Source: Kiritimatiellia bacterium
GTDB taxonomy: Bacteria > Verrucomicrobiota > Kiritimatiellia > JAAZAB01
Length of the DNA stretch: 64,000 bases
Direction of reading: 5' to 3'
NCBI GenBank assembly: GCA_040767085.1
Contig: JAXGPF010000013.1
Coordinates: forward strand, 129,093-193,092
Part shown: positions 7,719 to 23,285 of the stretch, in pieces
How the letters are laid out: each line of letters begins with the position of its first letter
Position numbering within the stretch: the stretch's first letter is position 1
Translations under genes and position numbers: made by a program
Notes under the pieces: generated by a model
Told to the model about the DNA's origin: nothing
Database searches by the model: none
The model's input: only the letters and a program-made list of their open reading frames with translations

Positions 7719-8015
7719 CACCTTAATCCGTGACGGGATTTTATGTTGTTAAGACAATGTCTGAATAAACAACAATTTATGAAGTTTTACAATATCACCA
7801 AAGATGTGCGGCGTTGTTTGACTGAAAAGACCGCCCTGCGGGTGAGGCCATTGTGCCGCATCTGCTTTGTTGCGAAGGATCCCGCTTTGCGGGATAAACT
7901 TGCGGCTTGTCCCGCTATAGCGGGATATGTTTATACAGCTTCATCCTTCGCGCCGCGCATCCTTGTCCCGCTTCCAGCGGGATGCGGCATACTGGCCTCA
8001 TCACGGATTCAGGTG
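7719..8015. mobile_element. MITE-like element with 15-bp terminal inverted repeats and an internal branched hairpin
   Basis: CACCTTAATCCGTGA (7719-7733) vs TCACGGATTCAGGTG (8001-8015), 14/15 complementary; nested stems 7843-8000. Confidence 0.6.
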
Positions 8016-8111
8016 TTATCCAGCGCACAGAATGGCCGGCCGCCAGGCCGCGCTTGCCTGCCGGCAATGGGCCGCCGGGATGGCGGTCCATTGCCATGCC
8101 GGGCAGCGGTA

Positions 8112-9929
8112 TTATTGCTTGTTTTCGCCGGCGGATTCTGACTGGGCGTCCTGGTCGGGTTTCTTCTTGCCCTCGCCCGGCCGCCATTCCTCGCCGGCTG
8201 CCAGGCCGAAGGCTTCGTTGAAAGCGCCGGCCAGGTCCACCAGGTCTTCGCCCGGGCGCAATCCGGTCAGCATGTCTTCCTGCACCACAAAATCTTCATC
8301 CGGCAAGGCGGCTGCCTTGATGCTCAACCCGATGCGGCGTTCCGCCTGGTCGATTTTCACGACGCGCGCAGTGATTTCCTGGCCGACTTTCAGGACATCG
8401 CGGACTTTTTCCACGTGATCTTCGCCGATTTGCGAGATGTGCACCAGGCCGTCAATGCCATCTTCCAGGCCGACGAAGGCCCCGAAGGACGCCAGCTTGC
8501 TGACCTTGCCGGTGACCACCTGGCCGATTTTGTAATTAGCGGCGATGGAGGTCCAGGGATCTTCCTGGGCTTGTTTCAGGCCCAGGCTGATGCGCTGGTT
8601 CTCGGGCGAGACTTCCAGGATGACCACATCCACCTTGTCGCCCTTCTTGAGGACGTCGGAGGGATGGTTGACCTTGCGGGTCCAGGACATGTCGGAAACA
8701 TGGATCATGCCGTCAATGCCTTCTTCCAGTTCCACGAAAGCGCCATAGGATGTGAAGTTGCGCACCGTGCCGGAAACGCGCGCGCCGACCGGGTAACGGT
8801 CGCGCACCAGTTCCCAGGGATTCTGGGTGGTCTGGCGGATGCCCAGCGAGATTTTCTGGTCTGTGGAGTTGATGTTCAGCACTACGGCGTCCACTTCCTG
8901 GCCTAGGCTGAGCACGTCCGAAGCGCGGTTGACGCGCTGGACCCAGGAAATTTCGGAGACATGCACCAGGCCTTCGACGCCCGCCTCGATTTCCACGAAA
9001 GCGCCGTAGGGCACCAGGTTGACCACCTTGCCGTGGATGCGGGTGCCGACGGGGTATTTCTGCTCGATATTGTCCCAGGGATTCGCAAGTTTCTGTTTCA
9101 GGCCCAGCGAAACCCGTTCTTTTTCGAAATCGATATCCAGGATCATCACTTCGATATTGTCGCCGACCTTGACCACCTTGGAGGGGTGGCTGACGCGGCC
9201 CCAACTCATATCGGTGATGTGCAGCAGGCCGTCCAGCCCGCCCAGGTCGATGAAAGCGCCGAAATCGGTGATGTTTTTGACAATGCCGGCGCGCAATTGG
9301 CCGATTTTGATCTCGGACATCAGTTGGCGTTTCTTCTCCCGGCGGCGCTGCTCGATCAATTCCCGGCGCGACAGGACGATGTTGCGCCGATCCCGGTCAA
9401 TTTTCATGACCTTGAATTCGAAGCGCTTGCCCATGTAGTCGTCCATGTTGCGCACGGGCATGACGTCAATCTGCGACCCGGGCAGAAATCCTTTCACGCC
9501 GTTGATATCCACGATCATCCCGCCCTTGATCCGGCTCTTGATTTCGCCTTCCAGCACGCTGCCTTCGCTGCTGGATGAGAGGACGTTGTCCCACATGCGC
9601 TGCTGTTCGGCCTTGGTCTTGCTGAGCACCACCTTGCCGTCTTCGTCTTCCAACTGCTCCAGCAACACTTCCACCTCGTCGCCGGGCTTGACTTCGGGCA
9701 TGTCCTGGAATTCTTCGCGGCTGACGGCCCCTTCGGATTTGTAGCCGATATCCACCAGCACTTCGTTGGAGCGGACTTCCACCACCCGCCCCTTGACAAT
9801 GGAGCCGGCGGTGAAATTCTTCAGGGTGTCTTCGTAAAGCTTGGCCAGAGCTTCCTGCTTGTCGCCGCCGAATTGATCGAGATCGAAGTTAATGCGGGTT
9901 TTGGTGGGGGTTGCGGTTGCCGATTCCAT
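8112..9929 (-). CDS. rpsA: 30S ribosomal protein S1
   Basis: Six S1 repeats (VDIGYKSEG, FLPGSQID, DFGAFIDLGG.DGLLHITDMSW, YGAFVE...); start placed at MESATA. Confidence 0.97.
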   Translation of the reverse strand: MESATATPTKTRINFDLDQFGGDKQEALAKLYEDTLKNFTAGSIVKGRVVEVRSNEVLVDIGYKSEGAVSREEFQDMPEVKPGDEVEVLLEQLEDEDGKVVLSKTKAEQQRMWDNVLSSSSEGSVLEGEIKSRIKGGMIVDINGVKGFLPGSQIDVMPVRNMDDYMGKRFEFKVMKIDRDRRNIVLSRRELIEQRRREKKRQLMSEIKIGQLRAGIVKNITDFGAFIDLGGLDGLLHITDMSWGRVSHPSKVVKVGDNIEVMILDIDFEKERVSLGLKQKLANPWDNIEQKYPVGTRIHGKVVNLVPYGAFVEIEAGVEGLVHVSEISWVQRVNRASDVLSLGQEVDAVVLNINSTDQKISLGIRQTTQNPWELVRDRYPVGARVSGTVRNFTSYGAFVELEEGIDGMIHVSDMSWTRKVNHPSDVLKKGDKVDVVILEVSPENQRISLGLKQAQEDPWTSIAANYKIGQVVTGKVSKLASFGAFVGLEDGIDGLVHISQIGEDHVEKVRDVLKVGQEITARVVKIDQAERRIGLSIKAAALPDEDFVVQEDMLTGLRPGEDLVDLAGAFNEAFGLAAGEEWRPGEGKKKPDQDAQSESAGENKQ

Positions 9930-10080
9930 GTTTGATTGCTTTGCTTGGTTTGCGGGCTTGGTTGATAATGAGTTAAGCTCCAGGCGGAAACAGCCCAATA
10001 ATTTCCGGCTAAACTGGAAAACCTGCCATTTTCCGCTGCAAATAGCAAGCTAAAAAATGTTTATGCGAATTTTAACGGGT

Positions 10081-10226
10081 GGGCTGCGTCATTTTCAGAA
10101 CAGACGGATCGGTACGGAGACCTCGCCCTACCATCGGATCAAAGGACTGGCCGCCCTACCGGTTCACAAGCATTTGTCGTGGGTAGGGCGAGACCTCCGG
10201 GCGAGCCGCCGAAAATGACGCAGTCC
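10081..10226. repeat. REPIN/MITE-like element: 13-bp terminal inverted repeats enclosing three GTAGGGCG REP-like arms
   Basis: CTGCGTCATTTTC (10084-10096) / GAAAATGACGCAG (10211-10223); internal CGCCCTACC twice and GGTAGGGCG once. Confidence 0.65.
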
Positions 10227-10264
10227 TGATTTTAACTGCTGGTCCCGGCCGGCGGCGGGCGGGT

Positions 10265-10633
10265 TTATGCCTCGCGTCGCGGCGGCAGGGGCTTCTTGAC
10301 GCCTGCTTCGTCCAGGCGCACGAAGGTGATGGCGGTGCTGAAAATATGGCGTTCGGGCCGGTCGCCCGCCGCGACTTCAAACACATCCACGCTGTAGGAA
10401 GTCGAGGTGGTGCCGGTGCGGACATGGGCGGAGCGGAACCGCAGGATGCCGCCGTTCTCGACGCGTTGCCGGAAGACAATCCGGTCCATGGCGATGGTCA
10501 CCAGGACGCACCCGGGGAAATCCAGCGAAGCGGCGATCCAGGCGAATTCATCCACCCACTTCAAGAGCGCCCCTCCGAAAAGGAATCCCTGGTGGTTCAA
10601 GTGTTCCGGCCGCACGATGACGTAATTGTCCAT
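10265..10633 (-). CDS. Acyl-CoA thioesterase (hotdog fold)
   Basis: VRPEHLNHQGFLFGGALLKWVDE, VRTGTTS, ITFVRLDE. Confidence 0.9.
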   Translation of the reverse strand: MDNYVIVRPEHLNHQGFLFGGALLKWVDEFAWIAASLDFPGCVLVTIAMDRIVFRQRVENGGILRFRSAHVRTGTTSTSYSVDVFEVAAGDRPERHIFSTAITFVRLDEAGVKKPLPPRREA

Positions 10634-10775
10634 AGCTTGTATTATAAAGCGCGCGGGCGCGGTTAAGCAAGCAATACTTGAAGTCCAGCCGATTAATTAT
10701 CTTGACTCGCCCCGCATGCCGGATATCGTTTTGGGCTGTGTGTCTGTGTGTTCTTTCTTTTGGAAGGAGTAAGTC

Positions 10776-22278: not shown

Positions 22279-22337
22279 GCGGATTGGAAGCACAGCGCGT
22301 AAGTGAAGGATAATAAAATCAGCGAAAGGAGGCAGTT

Positions 22338-22739
22338 ATGCCTGCAGGAGATGGAACTGGACCGATGGGAATGGGCCCTATGACCGGACGCGCGGCTGGC
22401 TATTGCGCCGGCTACGGCATGCCCGGGTACATGAATCCCGTGCCGGGACGCGGTTTCGGCGCGGGGTATGGCCGCGGCGGCGGATTCTGGGGCCGCGGCG
22501 GAGGCCGCGGTTGCCGCAACCGCTATTACGCCACCGGGTTAACCGGATGGCAGCGCGCAGGATATGGAGCACCCGTGTGGGGCGGAGTTCCGACCGCGCC
22601 GGTTGCGCCGTATGGCGTTGCGCCCACCCGCGAGCAGCAGCTTGACGCCATGAAAGGCCAGGCGTCGTATTTCGAGGATGCCTTGAAGGATCTTCGGAAA
22701 CGCATGGAAGAACTGGAAGCGGAAAAGTCAGACAAGTAA
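22338..22739 (+). CDS. DUF5320 family Gly/Arg-rich protein
   Basis: MPAGDGTGPMGMGPMTGRAAGYC, GRG repeats, C-terminal coiled coil. Confidence 0.88.
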   Translation: MPAGDGTGPMGMGPMTGRAAGYCAGYGMPGYMNPVPGRGFGAGYGRGGGFWGRGGGRGCRNRYYATGLTGWQRAGYGAPVWGGVPTAPVAPYGVAPTREQQLDAMKGQASYFEDALKDLRKRMEELEAEKSDK

Positions 22740-22745
22740 AATCAT

Positions 22746-22778
22746 GCCGCACGCCATGTCTGGAACATGGCGTGCGGC
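22746..22778. repeat. Intergenic 13-bp perfect hairpin
   Basis: GCCGCACGCCATG-tctggaa-CATGGCGTGCGGC. Confidence 0.55.
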
Positions 22779-22798
22779 CCGCTGAATGTGAGGTGTTT

Positions 22799-23032
22799 AT
22801 GCCCAGGGGAGATGGAACTGGACCAATGGGTGGCGGCCCCGGCACCGGCCGGGGCAGTGGTATGGGCGGCGGCATGGGCGCGGGCCGCGGGCGCATGGGC
22901 GGTTTTGGACTCGGCGCCGGCGGGAATTGCGTTTGCCCGAAGTGCGGCAAAACGGCGCCCCATGAGCGCGGCGCGCCCTGCTCGCAGATGCAGTGTCCGG
23001 CCTGTGGGACGGCGATGACTCGTGCGCAATGA
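22799..23032 (+). CDS. Small DUF5320-like protein with a Cys-rich metal-binding tail
   Basis: MPRGDGTGP..., CVCPKCG...PC...CPACG; GAGGTG RBS. Confidence 0.82.
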   Translation: MPRGDGTGPMGGGPGTGRGSGMGGGMGAGRGRMGGFGLGAGGNCVCPKCGKTAPHERGAPCSQMQCPACGTAMTRAQ

Positions 23033-23092
23033 CGCGATCTACAAACCAGGCTTTGCCCACAGCCCAATGCATGCTATCATCCATTCCACCGT

Positions 23093-23285
23093 TGTGGCTT
23101 GAATTCGGTTCGAAAAGAACGGCGGCGATCTTGCCCCATCTGCCGTCTGCTGACGGGCGTCCCTACGGGCGGGCTTCCCGGAAGATGGGCAACCGCAAGG
23201 TTAGCCCCGCTCCCGGAGCGCCCGCATCTGGGGCAAGCTTGCCTTGTCTTTTAGAATCCCTGCGGGCGCCCGAATTCAAACCACA
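23093..23285. mobile_element. MITE-like element with 16-bp TIRs and an internal branched hairpin
   Basis: TGTGGCTTGAATTCGG / CCGAATTCAAACCACA (15/16); inner CTTGCCCCA / TGGGGCAAG; AACC-GCAA-GGTT tetraloop. Confidence 0.65.

Follow-up and report, generated by a model that had tools for sequence, protein, structure and literature searches.

Miniature inverted-repeat transposable elements (MITEs) are usually defined by their terminal repeats only. IS1380-type transposition mobilises clinically important genes elsewhere, and we know of no conserved structured subterminal module described for this family; literature text searches found none. Folded repeats are familiar from other systems: the Correia, ERIC, BOX and RUP elements are intergenic imperfect palindromes of modular build, with size variants arising from insertions at fixed internal points and with predicted folding in the single-stranded or transcribed state. 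Here, we describe a structured module carried by MITEs in a 64,000-nucleotide stretch of DNA from a Kiritimatiellia bacterium (contig JAXGPF010000013.1, positions 129,093 to 193,092; hereafter the window) and in other genomes. Across a MITE superfamily of Kiritimatiellia and Lentisphaerota genomes, the module holds a constant subterminal place: it is kept at a fixed distance from one element end by four MITE families that are otherwise unrelated and that come from at least five genomes in two related bacterial lineages.

A sequence-only reading of the window had proposed one covarying motif at three sites. At the first two, the fixed blocks that it listed are indeed shared. The pattern GCTTTGTTGC..TTGCGG..TTTATACAGC is present at both 7864-7939 and 21805-21842 (two matches vs 0.00 expected from 100 shuffles), GCGCCGCGC follows exactly 10 nucleotides (nt) after these blocks at both sites, and four blocks are collinear between 7864-7958 and 21805-21861. 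They occupy 7864-7873, 7900-7905, 7927-7939, and 7950-7958 in copy 1, and 21805-21814, 21823-21828, 21829-21842, and 21853-21861 in the second copy, all on the plus strand. Every quoted flanking stem is also present, different in sequence between the sites with its pairing kept; the outer stems are TGCCGCA/TGCGGCA vs TTGGCGCAGGGC/GCCCTGCGCCAA, and the inner stems are GCGAAGGAT/ATCCTTCGC vs GGGGT/ACCCC. Folding of the two sites beats that of shuffled sequences both as RNA (z = -5.2 and -4.9) and as DNA (z = -3.0 to -3.6).

The motif recurs beyond the window. A genome collection was scanned for TTTATACAGC-N8-12-GCGCCGCGC (19 specified bases), and the 59 loci that were recovered with 10-kb flanks are referred to below by L-numbers. 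The upstream blocks are also present in 31 of them, and these come from four assemblies of the Planctomycetota-Verrucomicrobiota-Chlamydiota (PVC) group: two Kiritimatiellia metagenome-assembled genomes (MAGs), a 'Verrucomicrobiota' MAG closely related to one of them, and one Lentisphaerota MAG. The remaining 28 loci belong to unrelated taxa, match at the 19 specified bases only, and were set aside as chance hits. A covariance model based on 24 copies and then searched over 434 kb of loci returned 31 hits at E<1e-10, every one on the motif strand. The window and the four assemblies together hold 33 distinct module-bearing copies. Because the window copies are not among the scanned records, the source genome of the window is a further, related organism.

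The sequence-only reading had also supposed that the motif was new, and our searches agree. Rfam covariance models gave nothing at the motif, with gathering thresholds and with E values up to 5 alike; their sole hit in the window is a cobalamin riboswitch away from the motif (RF00174, 39.6 bits; 18944-19204, minus strand), at the 5' end of an 805-amino-acid open reading frame (ORF; 16593-19010) with He_PIG Ig-like domains. Likewise, blastn of both host MITEs against plasmid and phage collections found no match. Literature searches did not find the motif sequence as text, save for an 11-nt identity between 21803-21813 (GGCTTTGTTGC) and the beginning of the ISAba12/MITEAba12 (IS5 family) terminal repeat GGCTTTGTTGCACAAA (PMC6382973 Table 2). 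We judge this identity to be coincidental: there is no second inverted copy, the ISAba12 family makes 9-bp duplications, and three of the four MITE families described below (A, C, and D) have TGCTTTGTTGC in place of GGCTTTGTTGC.

In all four families, the module is an imperfect palindrome of ~108-155 nt in which a short GC-rich mini-hairpin (CCGGCAGCCGG, CCCGTAAAGGGG, CCGGAAGGCCGG, or GGCGG..CCGCC, by family) is followed by a long hairpin. The arms of the long hairpin reach ~22 nt beyond the stems quoted above, and its outer stem (P1) has a T·C mismatch whose position is conserved in all four families. Inward of P1 come an internal loop (TTTGTT / GCCGC), a stem of variable sequence (P2), and an apical hairpin that is invariant (GC-R-GTAT-RTTT-ATAC-A-GC). 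The motif had been described as lying at transposon ends, and its placement is in fact strict: the module ends 13-15 nt inside the MITE right end, in one fixed orientation, in 33/33 copies. Similarity between families is limited to the module core (A-C, 94.5% over 73 nt; A-B, 88% over 43 nt; A-D, 85% over 68 nt). The left arms of the families are mutually unrelated, and nothing internal is shared among families A-D save the module.

The host elements are small (146-316 nt), non-coding, and multi-copy, as are DDE-derived MITEs. Family A (233 nt; ends CCTGAATCCGTGA) and family B (254 nt; ends CCTGAATTTTGCAC) are both represented in the window, whereas family C (~234 nt; ends CCTAAAAACGGCA ... 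GTTTTAGG) is from one Kiritimatiellia MAG and family D (258 nt; ends CCTGAATATTRCAY) is from the Lentisphaerota MAG. The family A copy of the window, at 7721-8013 on the plus strand, is an expanded form of 293 nt (ends CCTTAATCCGTGA ... TCACGGATTCAGG); 11 further copies are in loci of two MAGs. Its long hairpin spans 7844-7999 (plus strand; arms GAGGCCATTGTGCCGCA / TGCGGCATACTGGCCTC), and it is longer by three extra mini-hairpins of the form TCCCGC-N3-5-GCGGGA (three matches vs 0.19 expected), all on the plus strand. The first (7880-7894, TCCCGC-TTT-GCGGGA) is a unit that is also found in family A copies L028, L030, L040, and L043 and in family B copy L032. The second (7910-7925, TCCCGC-TATA-GCGGGA) and the third (7966-7982, TCCCGC-TTCCA-GCGGGA) are each preceded by CTTG, and the third is directly 5' of the 3' arm of the outer stem; at the homologous position, L043 has TCCCAAT-CAT-ATTGGGA, with both arms changed. 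The family B copy, at 21642-21894 on the plus strand (253 nt; ends CCTGAATTTTGCAC ... GTGCAAAATTCAGG), carries a 108-nt module on the same strand (21774-21881; model score, 91.3 bits) that consists of a mini-hairpin (21774-21784) and the long hairpin (21785-21881).

The hosts had been credited with unrelated terminal repeats, which our comparison contradicts. The families share CCT(G/A)AA ends (the two window hosts start CCT(G/T)AAT), and the elements feature CCT...AGG ends, terminal inverted repeats of 13-26 nt, and 5-bp AT-rich target duplications. In an automatic scan for 14-nt inverted ends with at least 12 of 14 positions matching plus a flanking duplication, 12 of the MITEs passed, plus one false positive. 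The terminal 14 nt match at 12-14 positions in these 12 elements, and the 5-bp duplications are perfect in 10 of them and 4/5 identical in the other two. The family B copy of the window is flanked by TAATA at 21637-21641 and 21895-21899, and the family A copy by TGTCA on the left (7716-7720) and TGTTA on the right (8014-8018), identical at 4/5 positions. Given the inverted ends and the 5-bp duplications, the host elements are therefore real DDE-type MITEs of one transposon superfamily, with related terminal repeats.

The closest match to these ends is in the IS1380 family. In two reports on ISEcp1 (PMC6061673; PMC2887853), this element has the 14-nt end CCTAGATTCTACGT and makes 5-bp AT-rich duplications that include TAATA, and the MITEs show the same signature of CCT starts, ~14-bp repeats, and 5-bp AT-rich duplications. 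The combination of CCT...AGG ends, ~13-14-bp repeats, and these duplications points to mobilisation in trans, most likely by an IS1380/ISEcp1-type DDE transposase.

The claim of conserved loops on covarying stems holds in the larger set of copies. In a model-made alignment of 29 distinct rows, 88.8% of stem cells are paired, vs 22.6-50.1% with partners slid by 1-3 columns; 10/29 pairs have changed on both sides, and the covariation score was reached by 0/500 shuffles. The apical hairpin is invariant in sequence (0/6 pairs covary). Within family B, a path of compensation leads from G-C (L006) through G·T (L005) to A-T (L019 and L032). Pairing of GAATGA/TCATTC is restored in L036, and the outer arms of L048 carry coupled changes.

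The variation of the module is also 3-4 times lower than that of the element's left arm and about as low as in the terminal repeats, in which ~0.15 of columns are variable. Variable columns number 64/92 in the left arm and 24/96 in the module across 12 copies of family A (Fisher p 1e-9), and 51/94 and 16/97, respectively, across 10 copies of family B (Fisher p 4e-8). With a variability similar to that of the terminal repeats, the module thus shows the level of conservation of sequences known to be required in cis. A comparison of L005 and L043 as orthologous copies is uninformative about selection, the MITE being inside a stretch of 100% identity. This stretch (L005 4500-7169) extends over ~2.6 kb and includes the family B MITE, although the two loci are from different MAGs; the adjoining sequence is 83-97% identical except for one 100-nt segment (66%), and the arrangement represents either a mosaic or an assembly or binning artefact.

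We propose, with about an even chance of being right, that the motif forms the conserved core of a structured subterminal module that acts in cis in IS1380-like MITEs and has been exchanged between families. The module would be needed in cis for MITE propagation, and its active form would be a folded single strand or a cruciform that the transposase or a host factor recognises beside the terminal repeat. It may have passed between otherwise unrelated MITE families by recombination, or by insertion at the inner edge of the terminal repeat, rather than as a free-living element. Such a cis role as a recognised fold would explain why conserved loops and complementary stems are held at the constraint of terminal repeats. 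If the module is required in cis, it would also point to a structure-dependent step in IS1380-type transposition.

Several points weigh against this proposal. IS1380-type transposition is not known to involve a protein partner or any step that depends on structure. No transposase was found in the ~457 kb of loci and window, so the link to IS1380 is drawn only from the end and duplication signatures. One family B element without the module (discussed below) indicates that at least one past insertion did not need it. With only four families, the covariation events that can be counted as independent are few, and a model-made alignment is fitted toward the structure. Finally, the conservation contrast is inflated by ascertainment, as copies were retrieved via a 19-nt exact pattern inside the module (without these 19 positions, variable columns in family A are 24/77 in the module vs 64/92 in the left arm), and possibly by alignment noise in the AT-rich left arm.

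The consistently linked transposase that the sequence-only reading had suggested as a lead did not emerge. The sampled DNA features no IS1380-type transposase; likewise, no TnpB, IscB, or IS110 gene was found in it, and none of 16 ORFs in low-GC gaps is a transposase. No co-resident autonomous element with matching ends was seen in these ~457 kb of loci and window, and no long repeats were found among the scanned loci. The sole long candidate from the terminal-repeat and duplication scan (L041 5965-7731) is a methylaspartate mutase gene flanked by another repeat, and a region between two end-like repeats (L038 10271-12193) encodes a beta-helix protein, not a transposase. The repeat at L041 5965-7731 belongs to a further family of one Kiritimatiellia MAG (...AACCACGGATGAACACGGATGGACAC...CCGCAGATTGACGCAGAT..., with CCTTTCCCCAATCC ends) that flanks genes in inverted orientation and is also present at L047 (~9780-9930) and L003 (~10270-10370).

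The fold had been suggested to move independently. One alternative to our proposal is that the module is a structured element mobile in its own right, which targets one site in IS1380-like elements, the inner edge of the terminal repeat, and is carried along with them once inserted; such a passenger would amount to a small fold able to colonise the ends of transposons. The case begins with family B. In the 21642-21894 copy, the 26-nt right terminal repeat is interrupted: the 108-nt insert (21774-21881) lies between ...CCAATATTCG and TGCAAAATTCAGG, which leaves the inner half at 21762-21773 and the terminal 13 nt at 21882-21894 (plus strand), outside the module. A sister element of 146 nt at 41786-41931 (minus strand, inverted relative to the 21642 copy) lacks the module, as the sequence-only reading had noted, and has an uninterrupted 26-nt terminal repeat. 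The two are one MITE in opposite orientations (81% identity over 133 nt) and constitute a presence/absence polymorphism at exactly the same point of the repeat. In family D, too, a long repeat has the module between its halves. The cores of families A and C are near-identical despite unrelated left arms and different ends, the arms of family C are mosaic with a B-like base and an A-like top, and an identical 46-nt double mini-hairpin is found at the same point in family A and B cores.

Nevertheless, we regard independent mobility as unlikely. All 33 copies are at a MITE right end and none is free-standing; the 108-nt insert has no target duplication on its flanks, no copy among the 33 has a duplication of its own, and no recombinase or transposase is linked to the module. 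Deletion of a hairpin, which is a common event, explains the with/without pair equally well, and the mosaicism fits recombination between co-resident copies. We take the data to reflect an exchange of modules among elements that reside together; the one direct sign of independent mobility is a single module-less sister (41786-41931).

Another alternative, which we consider rather doubtful, is that the fold is either a hitherto undescribed structure-specific cofactor site, a folded single strand of DNA or RNA beside the terminal repeat that a DDE transposase or a partner protein must read, or a hitchhiker that targets this position. If so, a conserved nucleic-acid fold would be either a requirement or a parasite of a MITE superfamily of the classical cut/copy-and-paste kind in PVC bacteria.

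The module could also be functionless, a palindrome kept complementary by mutational processes (template switching in quasi-palindromes, gene conversion among copies) that looks conserved because its copies are young. This is in keeping with mismatch types that are symmetric between strands, with small hairpin-forming insertions that are frequent throughout the MITE elements, and with copies within a family that are recent (perfect duplications). However, across four families the conserved blocks alternate with variable stems that pair, and so are not contiguous, a pattern that contiguous conversion tracts would not yield. The T·C mismatch and the asymmetric loops persist in all families and have not been 'corrected', and the lower variability of the module is measured against the left arm of the same copies. 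We therefore think an absence of function quite improbable. If neither a cis requirement nor a passenger holds, the elements would be an ordinary lineage-specific repeat. Like the Correia, ERIC, BOX and RUP elements, they are intergenic imperfect palindromes with a modular build and size variants from insertions at fixed internal points. Unlike those, they have one module common to four otherwise unrelated families, with invariant loops and a fixed distance to one end; no sequence similarity to those elements was seen, no search aimed at it having been made.

Overall, we favour a DNA-level role (folded single strand or cruciform) over an RNA role, since there is no strand signature in the stems, no orientation preference relative to genes, and no promoter shared by the families. 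Across the 23 basic-length copies, G·T mismatches account for 26 and A·C mismatches for 29 of 736 stem cells, and the strand signature of an RNA (G·U tolerated over A·C) is not seen. Relative to flanking genes, called approximately with a home-made caller, 11 of the 33 copies are antisense to both neighbours, seven sense, eight between divergent genes, and three between convergent genes, and four lack a neighbour on one side. A sigma-70-like site is located upstream of the module in family A only; family B has no such site on the motif strand, and a sigma-54 pattern was rejected on reading the sequence. The RNA option of the sequence-only reading, which had allowed for RNA or single-stranded DNA, is thus not indicated. 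A functional RNA spread by MITEs (small RNA, cis-regulatory element, or self-cleaving ribozyme) is improbable: it could draw on the conserved loops with covarying stems, on hairpin expansions at fixed points as in the variable regions of structured RNAs, on three possible G·U/G-C pairs within the TTTGTT/GCCGC loop of the plus strand, and on the promoter-like site of family A, but the near-equal mismatch counts, the mixed gene orientation, the lack of a common promoter, the lack of an Rfam match even at the most permissive threshold, and an apical hairpin without covarying pairs all argue against it.

Two further groups of known systems resemble the module in part. Integron attC sites and single-strand origins likewise keep a structure while their stems vary, and conserved mismatches and asymmetric loops, as found here, could mark one strand. 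In contrast, the attC core-site order (RYYYAAC ... GTTRRRY) is not present in the module when read against the consensus, no integrase or replication gene is nearby, and the elements have DDE-typical terminal repeats and target duplications. The same kind of reading rejected dif/Xer sites, hairpin-ribozyme loops, and kink-turn and loop E motifs. The omega RNA of IS200/IS605 and the bridge RNA of IS110 are also structured non-coding units beside a transposon end, in fixed orientation to the flank. Those transposons have neither terminal inverted repeats nor 5-bp duplications, whereas the elements described here have both; nor is there an Rfam match (HEARO and IS605-orfB models are in Rfam) or a strand signal. 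Likewise, IS200/IS605-REP type hairpin elements are recognised by an absence of terminal repeats and of duplications, and the MITEs depart from them on both counts.

The third site of the sequence-only reading is not a copy of the motif, which reduces the number in the window to two. It is a palindromic element (23096-23287, plus strand) with a GC-rich core that differs from the motif and has none of its core blocks. It belongs to a separate repeat family, here termed family E, with copies in L049 (90% identity), L043, and L016. Its basal arms (23121-23137 and 23230-23243) and those of the family B and C modules are homologous, and it shares with these modules only GGCGAT(C/T)TTG...CAA(G/A)CTTGCC and CATCTG; the family E arms covary in their own right (CCCC/GGGG vs GGGG/CCCC). 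Against the covariance model, 23128-23239 scored 23.3 bits (E 0.006) with default filters and was absent among the 68 model hits listed with filters off. The third site is thus related to the hairpin 'carrier'. Members of different MITE families (A, B, and E) cluster within tens of bases in shared AT-rich intergenic spots, such as L048 9968-10498, L016 9831-10409, and L049 1785-2286.

Further family B sequences are present in the window. A degenerate family B-like element without the module (60887-61085, plus strand) has four tandem 16-nt repeats in place of its right part; these repeats, GATTGAAA(C/T)TCAGGCG at 61024-61086, each contain the MITE-end-like TTGAAAYTCAGG. A solitary family B terminal repeat (CCTGAATTTTGCAC) is located at 39264-39277 on the plus strand. 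The module-less MITE at 41786-41931 is directly upstream of the second copy of a diverged two-gene block duplication (36431-37953 vs 41996-43525; 71-79% identity).

Finally, the window features several repeats of other kinds. Another dispersed family (CTTTGCCCCTTTGCCCCTCTGCTGATTCACCACGAAGGACACGAAG...) occupies low-GC intergenic DNA at 50496-50651, 57097-57153, 59783-59839, and 59967-59996. Two pairs of direct repeats, 45386-45477/47618-47709 (~2.2 kb apart, 95% identity) and 46053-46112/47725-47784 (~1.7 kb apart, 78%), surround ORFs 44699-46030 and 46121-47548. Within a 537-amino-acid ORF on the minus strand (14855-16468), a 132-nt periodic repeat with 74% identity extends over 14959-15419.

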